Shown here: one piece after another, positions 1 to 62,279 of the stretch
Numbering within the stretch: the first letter of the stretch is position 1
How the letters are laid out: each line of letters begins with the position of its first letter
Source of the DNA: Methanobacteriaceae archaeon
GTDB taxonomy: Bacteria; Cyanobacteriota; Vampirovibrionia; Gastranaerophilales; Gastranaerophilaceae
Reading direction: 5' to 3'
Length of the DNA stretch: 64,000 nt
Assembly (NCBI GenBank): GCA_963602355.1
Contig: CAVCIU010000002.1
Span: 28,223 to 92,222 of the forward strand
Notes under the pieces: generated by a model
Seen by the model: only the letters and a program-made list of their open reading frames with translations
Database searches by the model: none
Told to the model about the DNA's origin: nothing
Translations under genes and position numbers: made by a program

Positions 1-106
1 GCAAATTATTAAAAGAAGGTGAAAAATTCACCCCTTGCATGCAATCAATACAAGTTTGTGATATATTAAACCTAATAGCCGAGAAGAATTTGTTATAGGT
101 AGAATA

Positions 107-2642: not shown

Positions 2643-2654
2643 AGGAGAAAATTA

Positions 2655-3686: not shown

Positions 3687-3700
3687 ATTATAATAATTTT

Positions 3701-6244: not shown

Positions 6245-7218
6245 TGGCAACTATTTATAATGAAAAATTTAATGAAGATATAGTAAAACTTTTTACTTTT
6301 TGGATACCTTCAAAAACTCTACGTCATCAAATCAGAGGTAAACTTTGTTATGTGCCATTAGCAAATAGTTACAATGGCAAAATCATCAATAGAGGTGAAC
6401 CATCTCAACAAGTGGTTATAGACGAATTAAGAAAAGATAAACCTTCTTTGATTTGCAGATTTGGAAGTAACGAATATTTCACCGTTTACGAATGGCTAAA
6501 GAAACATAAATTTTCTAAAAGCCAAAAGAAAACAATGGGATTAGGTGTAGGCTTTTTCCCAACAACTGATGAATATATGAAAAGATTTGCGCTAGAAAGC
6601 TTGGAAATCGCAAAAGACATAGATGTTTTAGCAGTTTGGAATTTAAAAGAAGAAGAAAAATTCTGTCAAAAATATGTTAATCCAGACGTTGAATTCATAA
6701 CAATAGAAGACACTTGTCCGATTGATTCTCTCAACCCTTGGTCAGCAGAATTAAAAGGTAAAAAAGTTCTAGTAATTCACCCTTATGTTGAAACAATTAA
6801 GGAACAATTTAAAAAACGTGATTTATTATTCAAAAACGAAAATATTTTACCAGAATTTGAATTAAAAACTATAAAAGCAGTTCAAAGCATAGCTGATGAA
6901 AAAGCTGATTTACCATACAAAGACTGGTTTGAAGCCTTAGATAGTATGAAAAAACAAATCGATAATACTGATTTTGATATAGCAATCATTGGTGCGGGTG
7001 CTTACGGAATGTTTTTAGCACATTATTGCAAAACTCTTGGCAAAAAAGCAATCCACATGGGCGGTTACACTCAATTATTATTTGGAATTCTAGGTAAACG
7101 TTGGGAAACACATTTTCCAGAAATCTTTAAATACGCAAACCTTGAACATTGGACTCGCCCACAAGACAAAGAAAAACCAAAAGGCTTTGAAAAGGTTGAA
7201 GGAGGTTGTTATTGGTAA
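6244..7218 (+). CDS. putative GT-D type glycosyltransferase (DUF1792-like)
   Basis: SLICRFGSNEYF resembles the RFGDGEF motif of DUF1792. Rossmann-like IAIIGAGAYGMFLAHY. Start overlaps the previous stop by 1 nt. Confidence 0.45.
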   Translation: MATIYNEKFNEDIVKLFTFWIPSKTLRHQIRGKLCYVPLANSYNGKIINRGEPSQQVVIDELRKDKPSLICRFGSNEYFTVYEWLKKHKFSKSQKKTMGLGVGFFPTTDEYMKRFALESLEIAKDIDVLAVWNLKEEEKFCQKYVNPDVEFITIEDTCPIDSLNPWSAELKGKKVLVIHPYVETIKEQFKKRDLLFKNENILPEFELKTIKAVQSIADEKADLPYKDWFEALDSMKKQIDNTDFDIAIIGAGAYGMFLAHYCKTLGKKAIHMGGYTQLLFGILGKRWETHFPEIFKYANLEHWTRPQDKEKPKGFEKVEGGCYW

Positions 7219-8351
7219 TTAAGATGCCAATGAGACATCAAGTTTGCCATTTCATCAATTAGTTTAAATACTTTTTGCATATAAAAATCACTGTTTCTAC
7301 TGTATGCAAAATCTTTATGTGAATTCAACCATTCATCATTTCTTTGGTATGTCAAAATCTTTTCTGCCAAATCCTCTGGTTTCATAGGATCAAAAAATAC
7401 TGCTCTATCTCCCAATTGGTCAATATGACCTTGAAGGTTTGAAATAAACACAGGACAACCCACTGCCATAGCCTCTAAAGGTGGAATATTATCAGGTCCC
7501 AAAAGTGAAGCATAAGTTAATCCAAAAGCATTTTTATATAATGAAATAAGTTCATCTCTCGTTACAAAGCCTGCAAAGATAACGTTATTTTCTAAATCCA
7601 ATTTCTTTACTTGAGCCTTGATATAATCCATATTTCCCTGATTTGAACCAGTAAACACAAGTTTTAAATTTGAACCTTTATCTTTTAAAAGTTTTAGTGT
7701 TTGTACTAACATGTAGTGATTTTTATGCGCCCAAAATTGTGCTGGATAGTAAATATAGCCGTTCTTTTCAAGGTTATATCTTTCTAAAATTCTATCATCA
7801 CCCTTCAAACTGAAAACGTCCATTGGTGTAGGCATTTCAATAATTTCAACCTTATTTGACGAAATATTATAATAAGTACAAATATCATTTTTGCCGTCGT
7901 TTGTACCTATCACAATCTTTGAAGCTCTTGGAAGTGCATTATTATACATCTCCTCTCTTTTATAGAATTGTTTTTTTCTAGAAACCTCAGGAAAATACGG
8001 TGCAACTCTATGACCTAAGTCCCAAACTGTGAATACATAAGGTTTTTCACATGGTGCAAATTTTGGTGTGCAATAATATACAAAATCAATTTTATCTCTT
8101 TCCACAAGTCTAGAAAAAATATTTTTCTTTATGCAAGGGATAAAATAAAAGCCTTTAGCTTCTTTTCTAAGATTGATAAATTTAACTCTATCAGTGCTTT
8201 CAAAAGCATTTCCGCCTTTTGAATCATAATAAACATAGATTTCATGTTCTGTTGTATATTTAAGTAAAGACTCAATAAAATTTACCTCAAATGTATGTCC
8301 ACCACCGTGTGTAGCTCTTTGAACTTTACCTAAATAAAAACCTACTCTCAT
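7209..8351 (-). CDS. glycosyltransferase family 4 (GT-B)
   Basis: C-terminal GT4 signature ..LTYASLLGPDNIPPLEAMAVGCPVFISN.. The 3' end overlaps the convergent gene by 10 nt. Confidence 0.85.
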   Translation of the reverse strand: MRVGFYLGKVQRATHGGGHTFEVNFIESLLKYTTEHEIYVYYDSKGGNAFESTDRVKFINLRKEAKGFYFIPCIKKNIFSRLVERDKIDFVYYCTPKFAPCEKPYVFTVWDLGHRVAPYFPEVSRKKQFYKREEMYNNALPRASKIVIGTNDGKNDICTYYNISSNKVEIIEMPTPMDVFSLKGDDRILERYNLEKNGYIYYPAQFWAHKNHYMLVQTLKLLKDKGSNLKLVFTGSNQGNMDYIKAQVKKLDLENNVIFAGFVTRDELISLYKNAFGLTYASLLGPDNIPPLEAMAVGCPVFISNLQGHIDQLGDRAVFFDPMKPEDLAEKILTYQRNDEWLNSHKDFAYSRNSDFYMQKVFKLIDEMANLMSHWHLNYQ

Positions 8352-9475
8352 TATTTAAAATCCTTTATTAATTTACAAATATATTTAATATCATCTTCTG
8401 TCAAACTGCTTGCAGAAGGTAAATAGAAACCATTTTTAGTTAAATTATCAGTTACAGGATATTCACCACTTCCGTCGCAACCATAATCTAGCAAGCATTT
8501 TTGCTTGTGCATGCCAGTAAATAACAATCTTGTATCAACATTGTTTTCCTTTAAATGAGCTATCAATTCCTCTTTTGTATGACCGTATTTTTCAGGGTCT
8601 AAAAGAATTGTATTCATCCAGCAAACATTCACTGAATTTTCTTCATCTTTTTGGAAAGTTATACCTTCGACATCTTTCAAAAATTCTTTATAAAGATTAT
8701 GATTTTTAATTCTCATTTCCTTGTATTCGTCAGCCTTTTCAACTTGTGCAAGACCGATTGCAGCATGAATATTACTCATACGATAATTAAAACCAATATC
8801 GTTATGTTCATAAATACGAGGTGCATTGATTGGGAAACTCATATTTTTCAAATAACGACATGTGTCATAATACTTTTCATCTTTCATTACAACCATACCA
8901 CCCTCACCTGTTGTAAGGTTCTTGTTTGCAAAGAAAGAGAATGAAGCTATATTAGAGAAACTTCCAACTTTTTTGCCGTCATAAGTTGCACCATGAGCTT
9001 CTGCTGCATCTTCTATGATAAACAAATTATGTTTTTTAGCAATTCTTTCAATTTCTTTCATATTGCAAGGATTACCAAAAATGTGAACCGGCATAATAGC
9101 CTTTGTTTTATCAGTAATTTTTTCTTCTATCTTAGTAACATCAATATTCCAAGTATCCTTGTCGCAATCCACAAAAACAGGTTTTGCGCCAGTATAACAA
9201 ACCGAATAAGCGCTTGCAATCATAGTAAAATCAGGAAGAATAACTTCATCACCTTTGCCAATACCTAAAGCAGATAAAGCTAAATGTAAAGATACTGTAC
9301 CATTACAAACAGCCACACCATAATTACAGTCGCAATATTTTACAAAGCCTTCTTCAAATGCTTTTACGTATTTACCAGAAGATGAAATCCAACCTGTTTC
9401 CATACAATCTGCAACATATTTTTTCTCATTACCGTTAAGATACGGTTCACATACTGGAATAAACGAATGTGTCAT
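8351..9475 (-). CDS. DegT/DnrJ/EryC1/StrS-family PLP-dependent sugar aminotransferase
   Basis: Typical N-terminus (IPVCEPYLNGNEKKYV), DAAEAHGA and SFSFFANKNLTTGEGG (PLP-Lys block). Confidence 0.9.
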   Translation of the reverse strand: MTHSFIPVCEPYLNGNEKKYVADCMETGWISSSGKYVKAFEEGFVKYCDCNYGVAVCNGTVSLHLALSALGIGKGDEVILPDFTMIASAYSVCYTGAKPVFVDCDKDTWNIDVTKIEEKITDKTKAIMPVHIFGNPCNMKEIERIAKKHNLFIIEDAAEAHGATYDGKKVGSFSNIASFSFFANKNLTTGEGGMVVMKDEKYYDTCRYLKNMSFPINAPRIYEHNDIGFNYRMSNIHAAIGLAQVEKADEYKEMRIKNHNLYKEFLKDVEGITFQKDEENSVNVCWMNTILLDPEKYGHTKEELIAHLKENNVDTRLLFTGMHKQKCLLDYGCDGSGEYPVTDNLTKNGFYLPSASSLTEDDIKYICKLIKDFK

Positions 9476-9951
9476 TATACTAACTTAACCTCTTTACTGT
9501 CTACACCTGCAAAACGAACTTTATCTTGTTCACCAAGATATGGTCCTTGTTTAATTTCAACCATTTCAACTTCTTCTAAACATTCAAAACCGTGTCCTCC
9601 AAATGCTAAAAGAATTATATCGCCTTGATTTACAATATGACTTTCAATATATGTTTGGTCATCTTCATAAAAATCTACTCTCAATTTACCTTTCCTAATA
9701 ACCAAAACTTCTTTTGTATAAGAAACTTCTCTTGGTACGACATTATGAGTATGAGCATCGATTCTCTTACCTTTTGGGTGTTTCATATAAGCAAGTTGTT
9801 GCGAAAAATCGTTTGGAGTAAAAAACTCAACACCGTCTTTTGAATAATCATTACTAATAATTATCGCTAAAATCTTTCCGTTATGTTCAATTTGTTTGAT
9901 ATTATCCATTTTAATTCCTTTTTCATTATTATAATATAAATATTTTTTCAT
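9475..9951 (-). CDS. cupin-fold sugar-nucleotide modifying protein (FdtA/WxcM- or WbuC-like)
   Basis: Cupin His cluster (DAHTHNV) and beta-rich core, translationally coupled to the aminotransferase. Alternative start ATG 9909 (MDNIKQ) with an AAAGGAA SD is plausible. Confidence 0.55.
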   Translation of the reverse strand: MKKYLYYNNEKGIKMDNIKQIEHNGKILAIIISNDYSKDGVEFFTPNDFSQQLAYMKHPKGKRIDAHTHNVVPREVSYTKEVLVIRKGKLRVDFYEDDQTYIESHIVNQGDIILLAFGGHGFECLEEVEMVEIKQGPYLGEQDKVRFAGVDSKEVKLV

Positions 9952-9965
9952 GATAAAATAAAAGT

Positions 9966-10646
9966 ATGAGCTTATTTGAATTTAGAAAAGAAAACAGAAG
10001 ATTATTTTTAAAAATTTTCGGAATAAAGATGAATTTTGTATTACCTTTTGGCGGGAATAACCGAATTATAATCGTCGACAAAAAAGGTAAAGAACACAGA
10101 GTACCATTCATCTGGGGTATAAAAACACATTTTCACGGGGCGAATGCTGTACTAAAAGTTTACAGTCCTATGCCACGATTTGTAAATTGTGATTTTACTT
10201 TTGATGATGAATCAGTAATCGAAATCGGTTCTTCTGATGACTACATTAGAAAAATGAAAGTTATGACAGAAGCTAAAGGTTCTAAACTAATAATTGGCAA
10301 AAACTTTGGATTAAATGATGGATTTTTCCTATTCCATAAAAAAGAAAATAACAAAATTGAAATAGGAAATGACACAAAGGCAAGATTTTTAACAGTTAGA
10401 ACTTGTGATGGACATATAATTAGAGACTTAGAAACAAACGAAATCATAAACCCAGACGGAGATATAAAAATAGGTAACAATGTTTGGATAACAGGCTTTA
10501 ACACTATACTTAAAAATGTAGTTATCCCAGATTATACAATAATTGCAAACAACGCGGTTGTAACAAAAGCCTTTGAAGAGCCATACACAGTAATAGGTGG
10601 CTTACCTGCAAAAGTCGTTAAGCGCGGAGTTAAATGGGAATTTTAA
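9966..10646 (+). CDS. left-handed beta-helix (hexapeptide) acetyltransferase
   Basis: C-terminal hexapeptide repeats IGNNVWITGFNTILKNVVIPDYTIIANNAVV..IGGLPAKVVK. Start uncertain (ATG 10029 is also possible). Confidence 0.7.
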   Translation: MSLFEFRKENRRLFLKIFGIKMNFVLPFGGNNRIIIVDKKGKEHRVPFIWGIKTHFHGANAVLKVYSPMPRFVNCDFTFDDESVIEIGSSDDYIRKMKVMTEAKGSKLIIGKNFGLNDGFFLFHKKENNKIEIGNDTKARFLTVRTCDGHIIRDLETNEIINPDGDIKIGNNVWITGFNTILKNVVIPDYTIIANNAVVTKAFEEPYTVIGGLPAKVVKRGVKWEF

Positions 10647-10696
10647 AAAAATTGTGATAACATAAAATATATAAATATAACTCAAGGAGAAATTTA

Positions 10697-11785
10697 ATGA
10701 AAAAAGCTTTAATAACAGGTATAACAGGTCAAGACGGTTCATATTTAGCAGAACTTCTTTTAGATAAAGGTTATGAAGTTCACGGTATCAAAAGACGTGC
10801 TTCATCATTCAATACTTCAAGAATTGACCATCTATACCAAGATATTCACAATAAAGATGCTAGATTAATCTTGCATTACGGCGATTTGTCAGATTCTTCA
10901 AACTTAACAAAATTAGTTCACGACATTGAACCTGATGAAATCTACAATTTAGCAGCACAATCACACGTAAAAGTATCTTGGGATTGCCCAGAATACACAG
11001 CTGATTGTGATGCTTTAGGCACTTTAAGACTTTTAGAAGCAATTAGAATGAATAAACTTGAAAACAAAACAAAATTCTATCAAGCTTCAACATCAGAATT
11101 ATTCGGTTTAATCCAAGAACCAATTCAAAAAGAAACAACACCATTCTATCCTCGTTCACCATATGCAGTTGCAAAACTTTATGCTTACTGGATTTGCGTA
11201 AACTACAGAGAAAGTTTTGGTATTTTTGCTTCAAACGGTATCTTGTTTAACCACGAATCACCAAGAAGAGGTGAAACATTTGTAACTCGTAAGATTACAA
11301 TGGCAGCAACAAAAATCAAAGTAGGTTTACAAGATAAATTATACTTAGGTAATCTTGATTCTAAAAGAGACTGGGGTCATGCAAAAGATTACGTAGAAGG
11401 TATGTGGAGAATTTTACAACAAGACCACCCAGACAATTACGTGCTTGCAACAGGTGTAACAACTTCAATCAGAGATTTCTGCCGTATGGCATTTGCAAGA
11501 CTTGGTATCGAACTTGAATTCGTAGGTACAGGTGTTGACGAAAAAGGTATCGACAAAGCAACTGGTAAAACACTTATTGAAGTTGACCCACGTTACTTTA
11601 GACCTGCAGAAGTTGATTTACTTTTAGGCGACAGCACAAAAGCGAGAAACGAATTAGGCTGGAAACCAACTTATGATTTACAAGCACTTGTAAACGAAAT
11701 GGTTGATTCAGACTTAGAATTGGCTAAAAAAGAAAAGACTTTAAGAGAACACGGATACCAAATCCTTGTTCCACAAGAAGTGTAA
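10697..11785 (+). CDS. gmd: GDP-mannose 4,6-dehydratase
   Basis: [46 protein letters not shown]: canonical Gmd blocks. Confidence 0.95.
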
Positions 11786-11832
11786 AATAGTGAACAGAGA
11801 TTGCACAGGCGGAACAGAACTGAGGCAAAAAG

Positions 11833-12885
11833 ATGATTGAAAAAGATGCAAAAATATTTTTAACAGGACATAGAGGACTTGTTGGTAGCGCTATTTATAG
11901 AAGACTTCAAAAAGAAGGTTTCACAAACATTATCACAAGAACACACTCAGAACTTGATTTATGCAATCAACAAGCTGTAGACGAATTCTTTGCAAAAGAA
12001 AAACCTGAATATGTAATTCTTGCGGCAGCTAAAGTTGGCGGAATTATGGCGAACTCTAAATATCCTGCAGAATTCATTTACCAAAATCTTATGATTGGTA
12101 CAAATATTGTTCATTCATCTTATAAACACGGTGTTAAAAAACTTTTAAATCTTGGCTCATCTTGTATTTATCCAAGAATGGCACCACAACCAATAAAGGA
12201 AGATTGCCTTTTAACATCAGAACTTGAAAAGACAAATGAGGCTTATGCTTTAGCAAAAATTTCTATAATTAAATTATGCAGATATTATAACCAACAATAT
12301 GGCACAAACTTTATTTCTGCAATGCCTACAAACCAATACGGTATTGGCGATAACTTCAATATGGAAACAGCACACTTGTTACCAATGATTTTAAGAAGAT
12401 TTCATTTGGCAAAATTATTGAGAAATAATGATTTTGAAGCTATCAAAAAAGATGTACACAGATACAAATTAGGTTGGGGCTTGGACGAAAAAGTTACTGA
12501 TGATAATTTGGAAGAAATTTTAAATGAACTTGGCGCTTATAGAGACAAGGTTGTACTATGGGGCGACGGCTCTGTTTATCGTGAAATGATGTGTTCAGAC
12601 GATCTTGCCGATGCGTGCGTTTATTTGTTAATGAATAAAGATTATGACGAAGTTGGCGAACTTGTAAACATTACAAAGGGCGATGATATTCAATTAAAAG
12701 ATTTATTTGAAATTGTTAAACGTGTTGTAGGTTTTGAAGGTGAAATTGTTTATGACAAATCAAAACCAAACGGAACACCACGAAAAATGATGGACGCAAC
12801 ACATATCAGAGAACTTGGTTGGGAACCAAAGATTGATTTAGAACAAGGTATCAGAGATTTTTATAATTGGTATATTAGTGAATAG
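11833..12885 (+). CDS. fcl: GDP-L-fucose synthase (GDP-4-keto-6-deoxymannose 3,5-epimerase/4-reductase)
   Basis: IFLTGHRGLVGSAI, AAAKVGGI, GSSCIYP, YALAKI; immediately follows gmd. Confidence 0.93.
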   Translation: MIEKDAKIFLTGHRGLVGSAIYRRLQKEGFTNIITRTHSELDLCNQQAVDEFFAKEKPEYVILAAAKVGGIMANSKYPAEFIYQNLMIGTNIVHSSYKHGVKKLLNLGSSCIYPRMAPQPIKEDCLLTSELEKTNEAYALAKISIIKLCRYYNQQYGTNFISAMPTNQYGIGDNFNMETAHLLPMILRRFHLAKLLRNNDFEAIKKDVHRYKLGWGLDEKVTDDNLEEILNELGAYRDKVVLWGDGSVYREMMCSDDLADACVYLLMNKDYDEVGELVNITKGDDIQLKDLFEIVKRVVGFEGEIVYDKSKPNGTPRKMMDATHIRELGWEPKIDLEQGIRDFYNWYISE

Positions 12886-12889
12886 AATA

Positions 12890-12926
12890 CCCCTCGCCAC
12901 ATTTGCGTTAGCAAATTGGGGAGAGG
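12890..12926. repeat. REP-like imperfect palindrome, copy 1
   Basis: cccctcgCCACATTTGCGTTAgCAAATTgGgGAGagg; the second copy is at 16021-16057. Confidence 0.8.
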
Positions 12927-13050
12927 AGAAATTTTTAGTTGAAAGCTTTGCTTGAAACTTTAAAATTTCGGTGAGGGCTTTGGATTGCTTCGCATTCGCT
13001 CGCAATGACAAATTACTACTCACAATTCACAAACTACTATTTACTACTTG

Positions 13051-13059
13051 TGCTATAAT
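13051..13059 (+). promoter_or_regulatory. extended -10 box TGCTATAAT, 6 nt upstream of ATG 13066
   Basis: Read directly. No SD precedes the ATG, suggesting a leaderless or very short-leader mRNA. Confidence 0.35.
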
Positions 13060-13065
13060 CATCGT

Positions 13066-14442
13066 ATGGAAAAAGTTAAAAAGATTTTACAAAAAATACC
13101 TTATATATTATTGGGATTGATTTTTATTCTTGGAATTTATTTAAGAACAAAAGTTTATTTAACTAATCAATCTTTTTGGCATGATGAATGCGCACTTGCG
13201 TGGAACATATTAAATAAAAATTATTTAGAACTTTTCCAACCAATGCGATTTTTGCAAGTTGCACCACCAATGTTTTTAATTTATACAAAAATAATTATTG
13301 GATATTTTGGCAAATCTGAACTTGTTTTTAGAATTGTACCATTTGTATCAAGCTTGCTTGCAATGGTGATGTTTTATTTTTTGAGTAAGACCTTGCTTTA
13401 TAGTAAAAAGTCTGTACTTTGCGCATCATTGCTTTTTGCAATAAGTTTTCCATTATATTATTACGCAGGAGAATTTAAACCATATAGCACAGATGTTTTA
13501 TTCTGTATATTTACTATATATATATATCAATATTTGAATAAAGAAAATTTGTTTTTGTATTCACTACTGTTGTCAGCTTTCATTTGGTTTTCGTTCCCGA
13601 CAATGTTTTTGATTGGCGCTATTGCATTGCTTATCGGATTTAGCAGAAATTATACAGGAATAGAAAAACTAAAACTGTTTGTACCACTTTCCGTAAGTGG
13701 AGGATTATTTTATTATTACTATTTTCAAAAAGTTTTTAATATGCAAAAAACAGGTATGATGAACTATTGGAATAGTGAGTTTATTAATCTTGATAACTGG
13801 TTAAATATTTTTCAAAATGCAAATAGCTTTATTTTTTCACCAGAATATATTCTTGCAATATTAATGGTTGTCGGTTTGATAATTTATTTTTACCAAAGAA
13901 GTAGATTTGCTTTATTTTCAGTGGTTACATTAGTTTTAGTTATCGTTGCATCGGCATTTCATGTTTATCCATTTTATGAAAGAATGATATTATTTTTAAT
14001 ACCATTTGCTATTTTATTAGCCTCAAAAGCTACTGATATCAGACATTTTACAAGTTATATTTTACTTTCGGTATTTTTGTATGGTGCGTATCCGCAACTT
14101 GAAAACACTTATAAAAACATTGTTAAAAACAATTTTTATAAAAATAATTCTACACCACGAGAAATGGCATTATATTTAAAAACTAATATTAAAAATAATG
14201 ATATTGTATACGTAAATCAAGATTCAAATAGCGATTATTTGTACTATAAACAAATTTACGGAATAAATAATCAAGAAATAATTAATAACCCTAATATGCT
14301 AAAAAAGGGCGAACATGTATGGTTTTTCTTGCCAAATAATGCAAAAGAAACTTTTGAAAAACACGTAAAAGGCAAATATAACATTTACTACCACAACGTA
14401 AAAGCAAATAGTGGCTTGCTTTACGGAATTAAAGTAAAATAG
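13066..14442 (+). CDS. polytopic GT-C type membrane glycosyltransferase (ArnT/PMT_2-like)
   Basis: Many TM helices with a first-loop FWHDECALAWN (DE motif). Preferred start is ATG 13066; the ORF-track TTG 13048 lies inside a TGCTATAAT extended -10 box. Confidence 0.6.
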   Translation: MEKVKKILQKIPYILLGLIFILGIYLRTKVYLTNQSFWHDECALAWNILNKNYLELFQPMRFLQVAPPMFLIYTKIIIGYFGKSELVFRIVPFVSSLLAMVMFYFLSKTLLYSKKSVLCASLLFAISFPLYYYAGEFKPYSTDVLFCIFTIYIYQYLNKENLFLYSLLLSAFIWFSFPTMFLIGAIALLIGFSRNYTGIEKLKLFVPLSVSGGLFYYYYFQKVFNMQKTGMMNYWNSEFINLDNWLNIFQNANSFIFSPEYILAILMVVGLIIYFYQRSRFALFSVVTLVLVIVASAFHVYPFYERMILFLIPFAILLASKATDIRHFTSYILLSVFLYGAYPQLENTYKNIVKNNFYKNNSTPREMALYLKTNIKNNDIVYVNQDSNSDYLYYKQIYGINNQEIINNPNMLKKGEHVWFFLPNNAKETFEKHVKGKYNIYYHNVKANSGLLYGIKVK

Positions 14443-14582: not shown

Positions 14583-15791
14583 ATGGCAATTACTGTAAAT
14601 ACCAATATTCCATCATTGGTAGCACAAAAATGTTTAAACAACGCATCAACAAAGATGAACACAGCAATGGAACGTTTGTCTACAGGTTTGAGAATTAACT
14701 CAGCAAAAGATGATGCAGCAGGTTCAGCAGTAGCAACAAAATTGGACTACAAAATCAGTTCATTATCAGTTGCACAAGATAATGCACAAATGGGCACATC
14801 AATGTTACAAACAACAGAAGGTACATTAGATGTTATTCAATCAAATATGCAACGTATCAGAGACTTAACTGAACAAGCAGCCAACGGTACTTACGGTGAA
14901 GATGCTATGACAGCTGTAAAATCAGAAGTAGCAGCTCGTTTAAAGGAAATCACTCGTATGTCAAATACAGCTGAGTTCAACGGCAAAAAAGTATTAGACG
15001 GAAGTTGCGGTGATATTAACCTTCAAGTTGGTATTGAAAGTAACGATGACAGTATCATTAAACTAGATTCAGCAATTTTCTCATCAACTGCAGCAACAAA
15101 ATTGCTTGATATTGATGATACAAATCACGAATATAATTTTAATGTAAAAGCAGATATTTTTAAATATGAAACAAAAGCAGCAGGTGCAGACCCAGTTGCA
15201 GACCCCGCAGAATACAAATATTATGCGAAAGTAAATAACGATTATATTGAAGTTACTCCTGCAGATGATACGGATTTATCAAAAGGTTGCACAATTGAGT
15301 TCCAAGATGCTGATACAAGCAAAAACTACACCGGAGCAACATTTGCAGATGCTGATACGCTTGCAGAGTTAAAAAACCCAGCATCTACAAAAGTAACAAA
15401 AGAAACTGGCATTGAAGTATCAATGGAAGACGGTATTGCACTTGATTCTTCTTCAACAGAAAAAGAAAATGCAGTAATTGATGATATGTTAAGTTGGGTA
15501 TACGCAAGTGATGCTTTTGCTCAAAAATTCTTAGACAATATCGACTCAGCGATTTCAGAAGTTACAGCAAGAAAAACTGAACTTGGTGCAGCAATGCAAA
15601 GAGTCAATTCAGCAGTTGAAGTAGCACAAACAATGCAAACAAACTTAACTGATGCTGTATCATTAATCAAAGATGCTGATATCGCAGAAGAATCATCAAA
15701 TTACGTAAAAAACCAAATCTTACAACAATCAGCTGCAAGCTTGTTAGCAACAGCTAACCAAACTCCGCAAATCGCATTGCAATTGATTTAG
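14583..15791 (+). CDS. fliC: flagellin
   Basis: Conserved N-terminal block (MERLSTGLRINSAKDDAAG) and C-terminal block (LQQSAASLLATANQTPQIALQLI) around a variable centre. Confidence 0.95.
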   Translation: MAITVNTNIPSLVAQKCLNNASTKMNTAMERLSTGLRINSAKDDAAGSAVATKLDYKISSLSVAQDNAQMGTSMLQTTEGTLDVIQSNMQRIRDLTEQAANGTYGEDAMTAVKSEVAARLKEITRMSNTAEFNGKKVLDGSCGDINLQVGIESNDDSIIKLDSAIFSSTAATKLLDIDDTNHEYNFNVKADIFKYETKAAGADPVADPAEYKYYAKVNNDYIEVTPADDTDLSKGCTIEFQDADTSKNYTGATFADADTLAELKNPASTKVTKETGIEVSMEDGIALDSSSTEKENAVIDDMLSWVYASDAFAQKFLDNIDSAISEVTARKTELGAAMQRVNSAVEVAQTMQTNLTDAVSLIKDADIAEESSNYVKNQILQQSAASLLATANQTPQIALQLI

Positions 15792-23777: not shown

Positions 23778-24722
23778 CTATCTTTTCAAATTTAATTTAT
23801 TGAAAATTTCATCAAATTTATTGTGAACTTTTTCAAAAGCTTCGATAATAATAGGGTCAAATTGCTTTGTGCTAGAGCCTTTAATGATTTCTACACTCTT
23901 TTCGTGAGAGAAGTTTTCTTTATAAACTCTTGTTTCTCTTAAAGCATCATAAACGTCGCAAAGTGCAACAATTCTAGCACTCAATGGAATTTCTTCACCA
24001 GCTTTTTGGTTTGGATAACCGGTACCATCATATCTTTCGTGGTGAGATAATACGATATCTTTAGCCATTTGAATAAATGGTGTATTTTTTAGTTTTTCTA
24101 ACATCTTATAACCCAAAGAAGAGTGTTTTTTAACGTTAGAAAATTCTTCTTCTGTCAGTTTAGCAGGTTTTTGCAAAATCTTGTCAGAAATTTGAGTTTT
24201 ACCGATATCGTGCAAAATACTTGCCAATTCTAAATTTTTAATAAACTCATCATCAATTTTTAAGTGTTTATTATTTTCTTTTAATTCTGTTGCCAATGTT
24301 CTTGCATAAGCTTTCATTCTTTCTAAATGCTTGTAAGAACCATTGTCTTTTACTTGTACATGTCTGAATGATGATAAAATATCTTCTAAAGTTTTTTCTT
24401 TATTCAAAGCTTCATCAACTTTTTTTCTAATAACATCAGCACTTGCAGGAAGAATTATGTAATCTTTAATTCCTTCTGAATAAAATCTTACAACTTCATC
24501 AACACTAGGGTTTGTAGTCATTACAACAACTTTTTTCTCTGACAAGTTTTCGCATTCTTTTTCAAACTTGTTTGATAAAAGAATTAAATCCACATCAGAA
24601 TTCAACTTTGAAGAAATTTCTTCAGCAGAAGATAAAGTTTTTATCTCATATCCGTCTAAAGAAAGTATCATACTGAAAATTTTTAAATTTGTTTCGTTGT
24701 CGTCGACTATTAAAAGTTTCAT
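23778..24722 (-). CDS. response-regulator-like protein with HD-GYP (RpfG-type) phosphodiesterase domain
   Basis: N-terminal REC-like fold (LLIVDDNE). HD-GYP blocks ILHDIGK and HHERYDGTGYP. The REC lacks the acceptor Asp (DLILLS). Confidence 0.9.
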   Translation of the reverse strand: MKLLIVDDNETNLKIFSMILSLDGYEIKTLSSAEEISSKLNSDVDLILLSNKFEKECENLSEKKVVVMTTNPSVDEVVRFYSEGIKDYIILPASADVIRKKVDEALNKEKTLEDILSSFRHVQVKDNGSYKHLERMKAYARTLATELKENNKHLKIDDEFIKNLELASILHDIGKTQISDKILQKPAKLTEEEFSNVKKHSSLGYKMLEKLKNTPFIQMAKDIVLSHHERYDGTGYPNQKAGEEIPLSARIVALCDVYDALRETRVYKENFSHEKSVEIIKGSSTKQFDPIIIEAFEKVHNKFDEIFNKLNLKR

Positions 24723-24787: not shown

Positions 24788-25066
24788 ATGGACGAAGATA
24801 GAATTATCGTAACAGTATCAGGAACTGACAAAGTGGGTATTGTTGCAAAAGTTACAACAGTTTTAGCAAAATATGAAGTTAATATCGAAGATATGAAACA
24901 AACACTTATGCAAGGTCATTTTGTTATGTTTCTTTTAGGCAATATCGGTTCATCAAGCTATTCTTTTAAAGAAATTAAAAATGCAATGATTGAACTTGGA
25001 AACGAAATGGAAATGGAAATCTGGGTTCAAAGAAAAGGCATCTTTGATAGAATGCACTTGGTATAA
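24788..25066 (+). CDS. ACT-domain protein (UPF0237 family)
   Basis: 92 aa; IITVSGTDKVGIVAKVTTVLAKYEVNIEDM is a typical ACT start. Confidence 0.85.
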   Translation: MDEDRIIVTVSGTDKVGIVAKVTTVLAKYEVNIEDMKQTLMQGHFVMFLLGNIGSSSYSFKEIKNAMIELGNEMEMEIWVQRKGIFDRMHLV

Positions 25067-40059: not shown

Positions 40060-40368
40060 TTACATGTGCATTTCGAACTTACGTGCTGTTTTTGGTTCAG
40101 CTGCATTTAAAATGCTTGATGTCATAATGCTTTCATGTTCAATGCTTTTAATTTGTTTTGATACTTTGCCACTGAATACATCATCATTTGTAGCTAAGTA
40201 TGATTGAATTGCATTTAAGTTGCCAGCTACAGAAGCTTTAACAGATGCAGAAATTTTTTCTAAAGTTGTTTCAGGAACACGAACATTCAAGCCAAATGGT
40301 TTATAAGAAGTTAAACCTTTGTTCTTGAATAAATCGTTATTGAAAATATTGTTTGTTGTTGTTGCCAT
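40060..40368 (-). CDS. hypothetical 102-aa protein behind a sigma-28-type promoter
   Basis: ORF with AAGGAA SD. TAAATATA-N12-GCCGATAT lies 32-59 nt upstream. No family recognised. Confidence 0.6.
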   Translation of the reverse strand: MATTTNNIFNNDLFKNKGLTSYKPFGLNVRVPETTLEKISASVKASVAGNLNAIQSYLATNDDVFSGKVSKQIKSIEHESIMTSSILNAAEPKTARKFEMHM

Positions 40369-40399: not shown

Positions 40400-40427
40400 A
40401 TATCGGCACATCTACATGATATATTTA
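40400..40427 (-). promoter_or_regulatory. sigma-28 (FliA)-type promoter
   Basis: On the minus strand: TAAATATA (40427-40420), 12 nt, GCCGATAT (40407-40400). Consensus is TAAA-N15/16-GCCGATA[AT]. Confidence 0.55.
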
Positions 40428-51411: not shown

Positions 51412-52953
51412 TTATGCGTTTGTTAATTTTTCACTCAAAAATGCAATTGTTTTTGGAAAATGTTGTTGCAAATATTGAGCTCTCATTGCAAGCGCATAAT
51501 TAGCTTTATAAGTATTTAAAATTGCATTTGTTTCTGCAATTGTTTCTTTTCTTCCTCTATCCTTTTGACCTTTTACAGCTTCGTTTGCAATAAAGTAATC
51601 AATGTGGCTTCTTTGAGCTTCTGGATATTCTTTCAAGAAGTTTTTCTTTTCTTGTTCATAAACTTTTTTAAATTCTTTACTATTAGAAATCTCATCTTTT
51701 ATTTCTAATTTAAAATCTTGACCAAGACTTGAAGGTCTTTTGCTTGAATCAATAGCATGTCCAAGTTCGTGTAAAAATACTGCTGGATTGTCACTAACTG
51801 TCAATCTGCTTGAAGTTAAACAATCATCGCTGAACATATCCATATCAGTTGAACATTTTGATTGAAAATCATTATAAACAGCTTCTACACTATCAACCTT
51901 GTTAGCAAAATTCATCAATTCATCACCGGAAATAGATTTTAGCATATTAATTACAGCGCCTTTTTCTTGTCCAAAAATCTTGTTTTCAAATTCTAGTGAA
52001 GCTTTTTTATCAGTGTTTCTTTCAGAAATATTTAAACCATTTTTATTTAATGAAATATCAAAAGTTTTACCATTTCTTGTTGAAACAAAATTGTTTTCAT
52101 CAATTTTTTCAAAAGTTTGTTTTTGATTCATCAAAACTTTTCCGTTAACATCAGTAATCTTGTAATCAATTATTCTGTTACCGTTTTTATCATCTTGATA
52201 TAGATATTGAGTTCTTGTCATATCAGAAGAACGCATATCCTTTTTAATTGTTGTAACACCTGTTTTTTCATCATAAGTTGCTTTTGCTAAAGTTCTTGTT
52301 TTTCCATTTGGGAATTCGTATTTAACGTTATAAAAATTTGCAACTGGAGAAAGTTCAGAAATTTCTTTTCTTACAAGTCTACCTTGTTTATCTTTTTTAG
52401 TTTTCACTTCAGATAAAACGACATTAAAACATGTTTTAGAATCCCAGTCAGCAACGATTTCAGAAGTTAAATTGTTTCTATAATCTTCTGATTTAATTTC
52501 TACAAAAGCTGCAGCATTATAGTTATCAGTCATTTTCGGTGTAGAATAACGTGTAACTTTTGAAACTTCTTTTGCTAAAATTTTTCCATTTCTATCAACA
52601 GTTATAGAAGTACCTTCTTTTTCACCTTCTTTTGCTGTGATAACAACTGTTTCATTATCATCAAACTCATTTGCTTTGCATTGCAAAACTTTAGTTTTAT
52701 CAGTTTTGATAGACTGACCCAGTTCGATAATTTTATCAATATTCCAATCGCTTCTTATTAAATATTGTTTGCTATCATTGTCAAAGCCTGCATTATTAAG
52801 TTTATCTTGATTTTCGATTGTAAAATTATTTGGAGTTGTTTTTTCAAAAACATCTCTAGTCAAACCCATTATCGGATTTGACGCAACTTTATTTTGAACT
52901 TTATTAACTGGTTTTATTCCAGTAAAATTTATATTACTAAAATTTATATTCAC
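51412..52953 (-). CDS. zinc metallopeptidase, anthrax-LF / Pro-Pro-endopeptidase-like (M34-type) catalytic domain, with shared N-terminal leader
   Basis: LHELGHAID (HELGH at 51757-51771), downstream ETIAETNA Glu, C-terminal QYLQQHFPK. GTG start with AGGTG SD. Paralog of 57639-59126. Confidence 0.6.
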   Translation of the reverse strand: MNINFSNINFTGIKPVNKVQNKVASNPIMGLTRDVFEKTTPNNFTIENQDKLNNAGFDNDSKQYLIRSDWNIDKIIELGQSIKTDKTKVLQCKANEFDDNETVVITAKEGEKEGTSITVDRNGKILAKEVSKVTRYSTPKMTDNYNAAAFVEIKSEDYRNNLTSEIVADWDSKTCFNVVLSEVKTKKDKQGRLVRKEISELSPVANFYNVKYEFPNGKTRTLAKATYDEKTGVTTIKKDMRSSDMTRTQYLYQDDKNGNRIIDYKITDVNGKVLMNQKQTFEKIDENNFVSTRNGKTFDISLNKNGLNISERNTDKKASLEFENKIFGQEKGAVINMLKSISGDELMNFANKVDSVEAVYNDFQSKCSTDMDMFSDDCLTSSRLTVSDNPAVFLHELGHAIDSSKRPSSLGQDFKLEIKDEISNSKEFKKVYEQEKKNFLKEYPEAQRSHIDYFIANEAVKGQKDRGRKETIAETNAILNTYKANYALAMRAQYLQQHFPKTIAFLSEKLTNA

Positions 52954-57638: not shown

Positions 57639-59126
57639 ATGTTAATTAATTCTGTAAACACAGTCTCAAAAACAGTATCTAAGCCGTTAAACAAGGTTGT
57701 CCCTCAACCTCGAATGATAAATGGCTTGGCTAAAGATACTTTCCAAAAAAGCACTACTGTTACAAACCCAAAAAGAATGATGCCTCCAAATACTAGTATA
57801 AAAGGCATATTTGATTTGTCATACTCAACTCTTAGACCTGAAAATAAGGCAAAAGTTGATGAAGCAAAAGAAAGATTGAAAAAACAATACGGCAATGAAA
57901 TCATTGATTTAACTTTTGAAGCCGATAAATATTCACCAAACAATGAATACTGCTTAAAAGCTACATTAGGAATATCAGAAAGCCATTCTGAATTTTATGA
58001 TAATGATATAAATAAAATTGGTGAAGAAGATGTAAGCTATTATGCCAAAAATGGTGAAGTGTATATAATTACTAAGAATACAGATTATAGAAATAATACA
58101 ACTACTAAAGTTAGAAAACAATTTGATAATAATGGCAAAAAAGTTGTAACAGACGAAGTTAGAATTGTAAGAGATAAAAATAATAATATTGTCAGAAAAG
58201 AAATGATGACTCATTCTGACATAACAGGTGCTTTTGACCAAAAATACGTTTACCCAGACGGAACAGAAAAAGTAATTTCTCAAACAAAGAAATTCAAAAA
58301 GTTTGACGGAATGGAATGTGTTCATAAAGATATGACATCAATTGACGGAACAAGAACACAATACAAACTTGAACAAGATAACAAAGGCAATAAACTTTTA
58401 GAATACAAAATTACCGATAAAGACGGTAAAGTTTTGATGAATTTAAACAAAACTATGGAAAGAGTTTCTGATAACAAAGTTATCTCTTCTAATGGTGATA
58501 AAGTTTATGAAATGACTTTTGAGCCAAAACAAATAACAATTCAAGAAAGAGGAAAAGAAGCAACAGTTATACCAATTAAAAAAGGCTTTTTCTCAAGAAA
58601 AGGTTTAAAAATTACTGGCGAAAAGAAAGAAATGGCTGAGTTGTTGCAAAAATTGCCAGCCGAGCAATTAAAAGTATTATCAAAAACAGTAAAGACTTTA
58701 AACGGTACAAACAATACAAAAGAATGCAATATGCAACCTTTGTCAAAAACCGTTAACACAATAAACGAAGTCTTTTCTGCATTACACGAAATCGGACACG
58801 CAGTAGATTATAAAAAATCAAGCTTGTTCTTGCCTGATTTTACAACAATTTCAAGAGATGATGATTTAAAAAGAATTTATTCAGAAGAAAAAGATAATTT
58901 TGATAAAGCATATCCAAATGCTCAAAGAGAGCACCTTGATTACTTTATCGACCAAAAAGAACACTACTCTGGAAAATGGGGTGGTTTACAAGAATTAGTT
59001 GCAGAAACAAACGCACTAAGAGATTCTTACACAACAGAAGAGGCTTTAGCCGTTCGTGTACAATACTTGCAACAACATTTTCCAAAATCAATAGCATATA
59101 TAAATAATATGTTAGAAAAACAATAG
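57639..59126 (+). CDS. zinc metallopeptidase, M34-type (anthrax-LF/PPEP-like) domain, with shared N-terminal leader; paralog of 51412-52953
   Basis: LHEIGHAVD (HEIGH at 58785-58799), LVAETNAL, QYLQQHFPK. Shared strings with the paralog: DYRNN, TRTQY, YKITD, GKVLMN. Confidence 0.6.
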   Translation: MLINSVNTVSKTVSKPLNKVVPQPRMINGLAKDTFQKSTTVTNPKRMMPPNTSIKGIFDLSYSTLRPENKAKVDEAKERLKKQYGNEIIDLTFEADKYSPNNEYCLKATLGISESHSEFYDNDINKIGEEDVSYYAKNGEVYIITKNTDYRNNTTTKVRKQFDNNGKKVVTDEVRIVRDKNNNIVRKEMMTHSDITGAFDQKYVYPDGTEKVISQTKKFKKFDGMECVHKDMTSIDGTRTQYKLEQDNKGNKLLEYKITDKDGKVLMNLNKTMERVSDNKVISSNGDKVYEMTFEPKQITIQERGKEATVIPIKKGFFSRKGLKITGEKKEMAELLQKLPAEQLKVLSKTVKTLNGTNNTKECNMQPLSKTVNTINEVFSALHEIGHAVDYKKSSLFLPDFTTISRDDDLKRIYSEEKDNFDKAYPNAQREHLDYFIDQKEHYSGKWGGLQELVAETNALRDSYTTEEALAVRVQYLQQHFPKSIAYINNMLEKQ

Positions 59127-60485: not shown

Positions 60486-60977
60486 CTAATAATCAAGTAT
60501 TTTAACCTTCATGCCACTTTGAAGGTTATAATTTGAATAATCTGGAATGTAATATGGAGTTTGAATTGGAGGAGTAAAGCCAGTAGGCATGCCTCTAAAG
60601 TTATTATAAAAACGTTTTCTTAAACTATTATGATATGGTGAATAACATTGTTGATTATTTTCTCTCATTGCACGTTTTAGCGCTCTGTATCGAGAATATT
60701 CATCACCAGACTGCACAGCACCAAAAGTTGCCTCTTCCATTCTACTTAGACGTTGAGAAGGTGTTTCTGATGAAAAGTTATTGTATAACATTTTTCTTTC
60801 TAAGTTGTTAAATGCTCTTTGAGAATACATGCCCTTTGGCTTGTATATTTTTGGATAAGTTTGGTAATACGTAGGATTAGGGATATATTCTGTAGTTGAG
60901 AAGGAGTAATCGCAAAATCCTACGTTACCTAACAACAAAAAGAAAAATAAAAATGATAGTAAAAAAATATTCTTCAT
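60486..60977 (-). CDS. secreted Tyr/Asn/Pro-rich hypothetical protein
   Basis: Sec signal (MKNIFLLSFLFFFLLLGNVGFC) and an LERKMLYNNFSSETPSQRLSRMEEATFG repeat-like element. Confidence 0.65.
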   Translation of the reverse strand: MKNIFLLSFLFFFLLLGNVGFCDYSFSTTEYIPNPTYYQTYPKIYKPKGMYSQRAFNNLERKMLYNNFSSETPSQRLSRMEEATFGAVQSGDEYSRYRALKRAMRENNQQCYSPYHNSLRKRFYNNFRGMPTGFTPPIQTPYYIPDYSNYNLQSGMKVKILDY

Positions 60978-61037
60978 ATAAAGATTTATACGAAGAATAT
61001 TTTTATTTTTTAATTAGACACTTAGTGAATTTTTGTA

Positions 61038-62228
61038 TTAACCGAATAATGAGAAACCTCTTTCAGCATTTTCTGAAATTAATGATTTCATTGATTCATA
61101 TTCTGTGCAAGCTGCTGAGTATTCAGTTTCTGCTTGTTTTTGTCTTAAATCAAGACCTTTTTCTTTGATTGTCATTTTACCAGTTTCAGCATCATAGTAG
61201 TTTTGAGCAGCTTGTCTTGCAGCATCTCTTCTTGAATAATCGATTGTTTGAATTGTTGAAGTTTCAGTCCAAGTTTCTGTATCAGTTGTACCTTCAGTAG
61301 CAGCTGTGCCTGCGTTATAAGTAGCAACATCACTTAATGAAAGTTGTTGACCATCTTTTGAAAGAATGATTGAACCGTTGATGATTGATTCTTTTAATAA
61401 TTCTGAGTCAGTTTTGCATCTATCTAATAAAGAAGATGAACCTGTTGATTGTGCTGGAGTTGAAGAAGGAGTTTCTTCATAGTAACCGTAAGCTGGATCA
61501 CCGACTTTAGAAGCATCTGGAGTAGCATCAGCTTTACCCATAGAACCAAGAATTTCTTCTAATTTGCTTTGGCTGAAAGCAACTCTAGTGTTGTAGCTAG
61601 AAGTATCAGCTGTTGAAGATTGAGCAAACATTTTAGCTAATCTGTTAGCGCTATAATATTTACCATATTGGCATTCTTGTTCGCCTTCTGGTTGGAAGCC
61701 TGTTAAAGCTTTGTAAGTTGTTTCAGTAGTACTTTTTGTACCATCTGCGTTCCAACCTGTAGCACCAGGATTTTGTGTATCGATTAAGCCTTTGTCGCCT
61801 AATAATTTAACTAATTCAGCAACTGTTTGAGGCATTTGCCAAGCATCGCCACCAGTTGTGTACCATTTCCAAACTTTTTCAGTTGAGTTTGCGTTTGAAT
61901 TTGATACTGCATTTTTTTCTTTAATTTCATAACCAGCATTTCTCAAGTTGTTGTAATCTAAAGAAATGTTGAAGTTCCAGCCACCAGCTGTACCAGCAGT
62001 ACCAGCTGTATTGTATGTTCTAGAACCGTTTGTTGTATTTGTAGTTGTAATATAGTCAGGACCAATGTTATTAGCTTCGTTTAACATATTATTATATTTA
62101 ATAGATATGTTATTAGACATAGCAGTTAAAAGAATTTTTTCATTTGTACAACGCATAGAAGTTAACTCAAGATCATGCATTCTTGATTGTAGAGTTAAAA
62201 GTCTTGCTTGATTTGCTGCTAAACCCAT
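61038..62228 (-). CDS. sigma-28-dependent 396-aa protein with flagellin-like architecture (helical conserved termini, Thr/Ser/Gly/Asn-rich centre)
   Basis: ATG 62228 (MGLAANQARLLTLQSR) follows AGGAAAGGAAAA. The GTG 62261 of the ORF track lies upstream of the predicted transcription start. No signal peptide. Confidence 0.7.
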   Translation of the reverse strand: MGLAANQARLLTLQSRMHDLELTSMRCTNEKILLTAMSNNISIKYNNMLNEANNIGPDYITTTNTTNGSRTYNTAGTAGTAGGWNFNISLDYNNLRNAGYEIKEKNAVSNSNANSTEKVWKWYTTGGDAWQMPQTVAELVKLLGDKGLIDTQNPGATGWNADGTKSTTETTYKALTGFQPEGEQECQYGKYYSANRLAKMFAQSSTADTSSYNTRVAFSQSKLEEILGSMGKADATPDASKVGDPAYGYYEETPSSTPAQSTGSSSLLDRCKTDSELLKESIINGSIILSKDGQQLSLSDVATYNAGTAATEGTTDTETWTETSTIQTIDYSRRDAARQAAQNYYDAETGKMTIKEKGLDLRQKQAETEYSAACTEYESMKSLISENAERGFSLFG

Positions 62229-62251
62229 TACATTTTTCCTTTCCTTTCTAC

Positions 62252-62279
62252 TTATCGGCACACTTGAAGAAAACCTTTA
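62252..62279 (-). promoter_or_regulatory. sigma-28 (FliA)-type promoter
   Basis: On the minus strand: TAAAGGTT (62279-62272), 12 nt, GCCGATAA (62259-62252). Near-identical to the enterobacterial TAAAGTTT-N11-GCCGATAA consensus. Confidence 0.65.

Follow-up and report, generated by a model that had tools for sequence, protein, structure and literature searches.

The 64,000-nucleotide (nt) window analyzed here (positions 28,223 to 92,222 of contig CAVCIU010000002.1, assembly GCA_963602355.1) comes from a member of the Gastranaerophilaceae and carries on its reverse strand a gene for a 396-amino-acid (aa) protein. An initial annotation made from the sequence described this protein as flagellin-like in layout without being homologous to flagellin, and the description holds at the sequence, profile, and fold-search levels. 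Judged from its sequence and promoter, the protein is a member of a very large, unnamed orphan family that appears to belong to the late flagellar regulon of a gut lineage.

Gene, promoter, and family

The elements of the gene are as follows (window coordinates).

62252..62279 (-), FliA (sigma-28)-type promoter, with the -35 box TAAAGGTT at 62279-62272 and the -10 box GCCGATAA at 62259-62252
62237..62247 (-), Shine-Dalgarno region AAAGGAAAGGA, 8 nt upstream of the ATG
61038..62228 (-), coding sequence for 396 aa plus stop, assigned to a Gastranaerophilales protein family without annotation
60956..61004 (-), terminator-like element, an A+U-rich hairpin of 19 perfectly matched base pairs (61004-60963) with a U-run after it

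The encoded protein begins with MGLAANQARLL. An in-frame GTG at 62261 would lengthen it by 11 residues (407 aa), but this codon lies inside the -10 box and every homologue begins at MGL. Therefore, we dropped the longer version and take the ATG at 62228 as the start. The leader is at most ~20 nt long, and GAAAGGA(A) is found upstream of nearly all genes of the family. That the reading frame is a real gene follows from its 53 homologues and from a ratio of nonsynonymous to synonymous substitution rates (dN/dS) below 1. The hairpin at its 3′ end folds at -18.9 kcal/mol (z = -5.4; 0 of 200 shuffled sequences fold as well), and its 3′ arm holds the AUG (60977) of the next open reading frame (ORF). 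A G+C-based terminator scan overlooked this A+U-rich structure. The G+C content of the window is 31%, and its relatives place it in a gut Melainabacterium of the order Gastranaerophilales. Because of the hairpin and its U-run, the gene is probably transcribed alone as a stand-alone, monocistronic unit. A search of the locus against Rfam returned no match.

The initial annotation had named a sigma-28 promoter, and the assignment is borne out both at this gene and across the family. The promoter (TAAAGGTT-N12-GCCGATAA) is near consensus, its -10 box ends 24 nt before the ATG, and TAAA-N16-GCCGATAA at 62279-62252 (-) is the sole match to this pattern in the 64-kb window, where 0.03 matches are expected by chance. 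The motif is kept at the same distance in orthologues at three other loci (L004, L006, and L007). In a survey of 90 family genes with enough upstream sequence, drawn from ~80 Melainabacteria loci, the region from -150 to -30 was searched for TAAAG-N14-17-[CTA]CG[ATC]N[AT]. This motif precedes 76 of the 90 genes, compared to a background of 1.3% per 120 nt, and mostly ends 20-60 nt ahead of the ATG. With a stricter motif, 2.7 Mb (both strands) contained 93 matches, of which 60 fell directly upstream of family genes and three more upstream of family genes with slightly different start calls.

The promoter consensus of the family is yTAAAGtTTt-N10-aTGCCG(T/A)nA. The classical FliA/SigD promoter, known in Escherichia coli and in Bacillus subtilis, is TAAAGTTT-N11-GCCGATAA, and by sequence the family consensus is of this classical type. 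The promoter of the 396-aa gene likewise has boxes of the -35 TAAAGTTT and -10 GCCGATAA type, at the right spacing and close upstream of the gene. Its lineage also encodes the corresponding sigma factor: a FliA/WhiG gene lies at 7255-8079 (-) of locus L150 (TIGR02479 FliA_WhiG, 228 bits; cutoff, 189.6), with a family gene 1.9 kb away, and has homologues in L036 and L017. FliS is present in L149. No fliA gene was seen inside the 64-kb window itself. The motif, combined with the presence of fliA in the lineage, points to FliA dependence of the family. The motif also occurs upstream of some canonical flagellins of the lineage (TAAAGAAG-N11-CCCGATAA in L108 and L110, with variants in L099 and L105), and no clear sigma-28 motif was found upstream of the others, including the flagellin of the window. 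The family thus defines the FliA promoter consensus of its lineage, which is usable for mapping the rest of the regulon.

Other elements recur near these promoters. In 55 of the 76 family promoters (L004-L085; 2% background), a TGT(A/T)ACA box, frequently doubled as in TGTAAACATTTGTTACAA, precedes the -35 element at a fixed distance (25-35 nt). This box may be an activator site or an UP-like element. The leaders of 38 of the 76 promoters contain GT(T)ACTAA (0.4% background). The promoter and short leader of the 396-aa gene have neither the box at that position nor GT(T)ACTAA. An arrangement in which GT(T)ACTAA(G/T) is followed after a few bases by GAAAGGA is common to the leaders of family genes (L012-L082) and canonical flagellins (L099-L125), which also share small hairpins whose loop contains GGA (for example, AUGUAAGGAAACACAU and ACAAGGACUUUGU). 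Such hairpins resemble the CsrA sites on flagellin mRNAs of other bacteria; a tblastn search of the family loci found no csrA gene.

A word-indexed search returned 53 relatives of the protein, none of them named for a function (one NCBI record is labeled “hypothetical protein”). An exhaustive profile search covering 1.84 billion cluster representatives then yielded 3,474 family clusters (50% identity) at E ≤ 1e-3 and 2,378 at E ≤ 1e-10, with nearly all matches spanning the first to the last residue. A scan of one genome per GTDB species gave at least 362 family loci. The best 80 of these are almost all in metagenome-assembled genomes (MAGs) of Melainabacteria/Gastranaerophilales, or in MAGs that are evidently mislabeled. 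By their termini, at least six or seven paralogue classes can be distinguished, and loci or MAGs with two classes recur. The proteins range in length from 189 to 843 aa, and this variation occurs at one insertion point.

Architecture and sequence variation of the protein

The protein can be divided into five segments.

62064..62228 (-), residues 1-55, conserved N-terminal amphipathic helix (MGLAANQARLLTLQSRMHDLEL...), from model and alignments
61917..62063 (-), residues 56-104, outgoing arm of a long T/S/N-rich beta-ribbon (strand 58-73 in the model), then a conserved YNxL..GYxI element
61434..61916 (-), residues 105-265, variable insert at the distal tip (pLDDT 36-74)
61239..61433 (-), residues 266-330, conserved small helix/strand element (LLDxxKTDSxxLxExIINGSI..KDGQQ.SLS) and returning ribbon arm (..WTETSTIQTIDYS; strand 315-330)
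61041..61238 (-), residues 331-396, conserved C-terminal helix (..KQAETEYSAACTEYESMKSLISENAERGFSLFG; helix 332-395)

An AlphaFold2 model made with a 47-sequence alignment has helices at residues 2-53 and 332-395, with a predicted local distance difference test (pLDDT) score of 83-93 in both, in agreement with the helix-prone ends read earlier from the translation. Long strands (58-73 and 315-330) adjoin these helices, and the middle is poorly modeled. The N-terminal helix has 75% hydrophobic a/d positions in its best heptad register, and M1, G2, Q7, A8, R9, L11, R16, and Y45 are invariant across paralogue classes. The center is indeed rich in T/S/G/N/A, which make up 50% of residues 56-330 compared to 28% in 16 other ORFs of the window. 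This composition resembles that of the flagellin encoded in the window, and both proteins are acidic (isoelectric points of 4.8 and 4.4, respectively). Neither a signal peptide nor a transmembrane segment was detected, as had been proposed for the former; the highest Kyte-Doolittle mean over 19 residues is 0.36.

A 245-aa minimal member of the family (P0021), which is missing the tip insert, was modeled at pLDDT 83.8. Its chain forms a helix (2-53), an outgoing strand (58-81; pLDDT ~80-85), a small alpha/beta tip (84-155), a returning strand (157-179), and a second helix (181-244), and thus goes out and back along a beta-ribbon of ~23 residues with both termini together at one end. The tip of the 396-aa protein has ~150 residues more than that of P0021, and the insert is enlarged in a 546-aa orthologue (P0029). 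A free two-stranded ribbon of 23 residues is unlikely to be stable in a monomer, and the models therefore suggest oligomerization or lateral packing.

The expectation that orthologues would have conserved ends and a hypervariable middle was also borne out. When distant homologues are compared with the window protein, residues 1-55 are 55-65% identical and residues 331-396 are 50-59% identical, both without gaps, whereas the tip insert (105-265) is 18-20% identical and contains gaps. A closer comparison is provided by an orthologue (L004) that is 87% identical overall. There, the insert is again the least conserved segment (75% identity, dN 0.13, nine gapped columns), and the other four segments are 94-98% identical (dN 0.006-0.041). 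Values of dS also differ between segments of the gene (0.03-0.33), which suggests mosaicism.

Rates of the gene and of five flanking genes were compared between the window and an orthologous locus (L083), as listed below.

396-aa gene: dN 0.126, dS 0.27, dN/dS 0.47
SHMT: dN 0.006, dS 0.204, dN/dS 0.03
4HBT thioesterase: dN 0.005, dS 0.217, dN/dS 0.02
CobO: dN 0.036, dS 0.213, dN/dS 0.17
Downstream 163-aa ORF: dN 0.023, dS 0.268, dN/dS 0.09
495-aa ORF: dN 0.031, dS 0.324, dN/dS 0.10

At similar dS, therefore, dN/dS is 0.47 for the 396-aa gene and 0.02-0.17 for its neighbors. A gene that is locally very fast and has an indel-rich tip would fit the pattern of surface antigens.

These observations bear on the possibility that the protein remains inside the cell, for example as a coiled-coil structural protein, cytoplasmic or facing the periplasm, that is simply co-regulated with motility (a motor, polar-landmark, or chemotaxis accessory) and whose helices form an internal stalk. 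Sigma-28 regulons are known to include non-exported proteins, the terminal helices carry conserved cysteines, and neither a flagellar structural gene nor an export chaperone gene adjoins the 396-aa gene, all of which would suit such a role. However, an insertion-tolerant, T/S/N-rich tip, the elevated dN/dS, and lengths that span 189-843 aa through a single insertion point would be unusual for an intracellular scaffold, and no known cytoplasmic family was matched. We consider this explanation unlikely.

Comparison with flagellar and other known proteins

Searches for known relatives gave no family assignment. A Pfam scan of the protein at E values up to 10 returned only a chance match to the EAGR box (E 0.14-0.29), which was rejected as not significant, and none of 47 family members matched a Pfam family of known function. 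NCBIfam yielded no significant match for the protein, and PHROGs nothing for it or for three relatives scanned. Only chance matches resulted from a phmmer search of the protein against all PDB sequences, and an hmmsearch of the same sequences with N- and C-terminal family profiles (33 diverse members) revealed no solved relative and no flagellar protein; annexin and VAMP8 are among the chance matches in these searches. Thus, a confident match to an unrelated cytoplasmic family, which would have contradicted the initial annotation, was not found in Pfam, NCBIfam, the PDB sequences, or the scan of family members. None of 10 family representatives has an informative name in its source (one cluster member is called “hypothetical protein”), and the literature searched contained no paper on the N-terminal motif of the family. 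Likewise, searches on flagellar secretion in Melainabacteria found no paper that matches the family.

Flagellin was examined more closely. Neither Flagellin_N (PF00669) nor Flagellin_C (PF00700) is matched by any of the 47 family members. We also aligned three family profiles (A5, A4, and A3) by using hhalign with a flagellin profile (A6) made from 24 canonical flagellins of the window and of related Melainabacteria metagenome loci, and obtained probabilities of only 0.1-0.6%. The termini are therefore unlike those of the canonical flagellin at 14583-15791, as had been pointed out. The N-terminal motif of the rod, hook, and hook-associated axial proteins FlgB/C/E/G/K (Flg_bb_rod) and their C-terminal domain (Flg_bbr_C) were not matched in Pfam or NCBIfam either.

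A Foldseek comparison of the predicted structure, suggested in the initial annotation, gave nothing below E 0.05 in any search. For the full model, the best E values are 0.39 against the PDB and 0.059 against the BFVD viral models, and for the 245-aa member the best value against the PDB is 0.07. The top PDB match for both models, although not significant, is FliD (6sih_A, E 0.39; 9gnz_U, E 0.07). Flagellins too are among the top matches in these weak lists (E at least 0.07 and TM-scores of ~0.1-0.3 for FliD and flagellins), but the lists also include phi29, Andhra, and P68 tail or collar entries, pore-toxin stems, IpaD, and prefoldin. The lists thus hold anything with long helices or a long hairpin. 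Flagellin homology was not detected at the sequence, profile, or fold-search level.

The similarity to flagellin (FliC/Hag) is one of design. Both have conserved N- and C-terminal helices around a hypervariable, indel-rich middle located at the tip of a hairpin. Both lack a signal peptide, are acidic and T/S/N/A-rich, occur as several paralogues per genome, evolve fast, and can be encoded by a stand-alone gene behind a sigma-28 promoter. In contrast, the models join the helices and tip of the 396-aa protein by a single long beta-ribbon rather than through a four-helix D1 bundle, and the family N-terminus reads MGLAAxQARLL where flagellin has MAxxINTN. The search results and the presence of a true flagellin in the same window further separate the two.

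Like the family, the axial proteins FlgK, FlgL, and FliD are late or linked to sigma-28 and combine terminal helices with beta-rich outer domains, but they gave no sequence or profile match and TM-scores of ~0.2. Canonical junction and cap genes have been reported in fully flagellated Melainabacteria, and the family is therefore an addition to FlgK, FlgL, and FliD, rather than their annotated counterpart. An intermediate-filament-like protein (crescentin, FilP) was rejected as well because the layout is reversed, with helices at the ends and a variable, non-helical domain at the center.

The FlaC, FspA, and Cia proteins of Campylobacter jejuni lack a Sec signal and depend on flagellar export, and the FspA and Fed genes are sigma-28 dependent. 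By this established knowledge, such flagellum-secreted proteins share with the family the missing Sec signal and the link to sigma-28. However, FlaC, FspA, and Cia are not homologous to it and are not known to make up a large set of paralogues whose paired termini are invariant.

The remaining point of comparison is a set of Picovirinae structural parts (phi29 6qz9_0A, Andhra 8egr_I, and P68 6iac_B), which we take to combine alpha-helices with a long beta-hairpin as in the lower-collar protein; the assignment of these chains to that part is our assumption. They share weak Foldseek matches with the family, and one paralogue class lies beside podovirus-like head genes. On the other hand, E values are 0.13-1.4, probabilities are at most 0.07, and PHROGs returned no match. 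Picovirinae collar proteins are not known to carry a variable domain at the tip of the hairpin or to be encoded by sigma-28 genes.

Genomic setting and possible function

The 396-aa gene is placed between a divergent SHMT gene and a short ORF, beyond which lie CobO and other housekeeping genes. The ORF has the following position.

60486..60977 (-), 163-aa ORF, Y/P/N-rich with a signal-peptide-like N-terminal segment, directly downstream of the 396-aa gene

This ORF is kept after the orthologues in L004, L083, L085, L006, and L007, and the 546-aa orthologue occupies the same type of locus between SHMT and the 163-aa ORF. The ORF stays 59-61% identical where the upstream protein falls to 32-36%, and it has no Pfam match. 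It may be a functional partner of the 396-aa protein. Other paralogues are likewise single genes scattered among housekeeping genes.

No flagellar operon was found around the gene or its paralogues in the neighborhoods examined. Near six family members on long contigs there are only housekeeping genes, except for fliA (L150) and fliS/fliT (L149). We considered whether a 724-aa gene that immediately precedes fliS in L149 could be a family member occupying the fliD position, but it proved unrelated. A tblastn search of the family loci for FliS and for the flagellin of the window found neither, and no family gene adjoins a canonical flagellin in 63 metagenome loci. The window does encode a canonical flagellin at 14583-15791 (+) (Flagellin_N, 3.5e-38; Flagellin_C, 4.3e-21). 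This gene follows a 13-kb block (1-14442) of glycosyltransferase and sugar-nucleotide genes that includes a PMT_2 protein, and the block could serve lipopolysaccharide synthesis or flagellin glycosylation.

One paralogue class does have a distinctive setting. The class-b gene (FLAITSRK...TMFST) lies ~400 nt downstream of a conserved block of phage-like head genes, comprising a capsid-like gene, an SU10-adaptor-like gene, TerS, GNAT, an SU10-like portal, TerL, and a small transmembrane ORF. The pairing occurs in at least 25 species loci (among them L026 at 1-8051, L012, L019, L021, L030, L038, L042, L047, L049, L058, L059, L073, L078, and L081) and in 10 IMG/VR contigs (L153-L162). Between most of these loci, TerL identity is 87-94%, falling to 77-80% in the two most divergent. 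No tail genes were recognised in the block, which could be a satellite, a capsid-forming island, or a gene-transfer-agent-like element.

This setting, together with the weak Foldseek matches to the phi29 collar-and-tail (6qz9_0A), Andhra upper-tail, and P68 portal-and-tail structures, would accommodate a phage-derived tail, collar, or fibre-like part whose helices anchor it to a particle and whose tip binds receptors. However, in L018 the class-b gene lacks the head block upstream, which points to insertion next to an existing gene. The sigma-28 promoter lies beyond TerL as part of the family gene, and the head genes are not preceded by a conserved sigma-28 motif. We therefore read the block as an island inserted beside the class-b gene and not as part of it. 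Moreover, the 396-aa gene and the other paralogue classes lack adjacent phage genes, and neither PHROGs nor the structural searches (tail/collar E 0.13-1.4; best BFVD value 0.059) gave a significant match. Nor would a fibre usually be built from a chain that doubles back and has its tip midway. A phage origin is thus very improbable.

Our preferred reading, which we hold tentatively, is that the 396-aa protein is of the late flagellar class, is exported by the flagellar type III apparatus, assembles via its terminal helices, and displays its variable tip. We infer the export route, the assembly, and the surface exposure from the features described above. In this scheme, the gene would be transcribed late, with flagellar genes, as a member of the FliA regulon. 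The terminal amphipathic helices would pair, and the two-stranded beta-ribbon would lead away from them to a fast-evolving, insertion-tolerant domain at the far tip. The most likely reason for the protein's lack of a Sec signal would be that the flagellar type III export apparatus carries it out of the cell; no other Sec-independent route is tied to the sigma-28 regulon. Outside the cell, it would assemble with itself, with paralogues, or with the axial structure of the flagellum through the conserved helices, such that the variable tip faces the environment. By analogy, the family may be a functional counterpart of flagellin and the hook-associated proteins, although not a detectable homologue.

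Several observations weigh against this flagellar assignment. No sequence, profile, or significant fold match links the family to an axial flagellar protein. In the neighborhoods examined, flagellar genes are not adjacent, with the exceptions of fliA in L150 and L036 and of fliS/fliT, 6 kb away, in L149; flagellin genes too are often stand-alone sigma-28 units. A canonical flagellin is already encoded in the window, so the 396-aa protein is not needed as a filament. The sigma-28 regulons of other bacteria also include proteins that are not exported, such as chemoreceptors and autolysins. The conserved cysteines in the terminal helices count only weakly, given that the canonical flagellin of the window also has three.

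The same promoter, absence of a signal peptide, composition, and fast evolution would equally serve a secreted effector or adhesin that does not polymerize. Such a protein would leave by the flagellar type III apparatus, as the FlaC, FspA, and Cia proteins of C. jejuni do, or by another Sec-independent route, and would act as a soluble or cell-bound monomer or small oligomer whose tip binds host or microbial ligands. The presence of paralogues with different tips in one genome fits a repertoire of binders, and secretion has been proposed in the literature as the reason why most Gastranaerophilales retain partial sets of flagellar genes. However, the gap-free, strongly conserved termini in all classes and the exposed long ribbon look like assembly interfaces, which makes this alternative rather improbable compared to export followed by assembly. 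A bolder form of the assembly reading, which we regard as doubtful, is that the family represents a second, non-homologous solution to the job of flagellin and hook-associated proteins. Its members would then be sigma-28-driven substrates of the flagellar type III system that build an unrecognized appendage or coat, or that are the cargo of “incomplete” flagellar gene sets.

Other genes of the window and related loci have similar promoters. A second sigma-28-type promoter (TAAATATATCATGTAGATGTGCCGATAT, 40401-40427 (-)) lies directly upstream of a 102-aa ORF (40060-40368 (-)), which has only sub-threshold chance matches in Pfam and none in NCBIfam and may be another small member of the sigma-28 regulon. 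A weaker site (TAAAAGAATAGCTTGATGAACCGATA, 24943-24968 (-)) is found ~220 nt upstream of a response-regulator/HD-GYP ORF (23778-24722 (-)) that is possibly a cyclic di-GMP phosphodiesterase. In three lineages (L025, L036/L039, and L050), a strict sigma-28 promoter precedes a conserved ORF of 51-52 aa (MIKK..LLRGARKRRS..; e.g., L150 14080-14235 (-), equivalent to L039), and another copy of this ORF in L150/L039 and L036 adjoins an SLH-domain gene. A 110-aa ORF beside fliA (L150 6926-7258 (+)) also has a sigma-28 promoter. Neither of these last two ORFs matches a known family. The window further encodes two paralogous proteins of ~500 aa (57639-59126 (+) and 51412-52953 (-)) that are 31% identical, contain an HExxH motif, and have a weak anthrax-lethal-factor-like match but no obvious signal peptide. 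Similar genes are found near family genes in L082 (17546-19156 (-)), L015, and L085.

The Gastranaerophilales are widespread gut relatives of the cyanobacteria, and ~25% of their genomes have complete flagellar gene sets. The remaining three quarters, approximately, keep genes for the export gate, ATPase, and rod (such as flhB, fliI, and flgG) without those for flagellin, cap, and junction proteins. Such partial sets have been puzzling since 2013-2014, and a role in secretion has been proposed for them. What is new here is a very large family that has no name in the sources checked and that is an obvious candidate substrate of the retained export genes, providing concrete candidates for non-flagellin cargo of the flagellar export machinery. 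If its members do build an appendage or coat, “non-flagellated” lineages may carry a functional, unrecognized surface organelle. If they are exposed at the surface, the family would represent convergent evolution of a design with conserved termini and a variable tip, and its proteins would be likely antigens and points of phage and host contact in a poorly understood human gut lineage.

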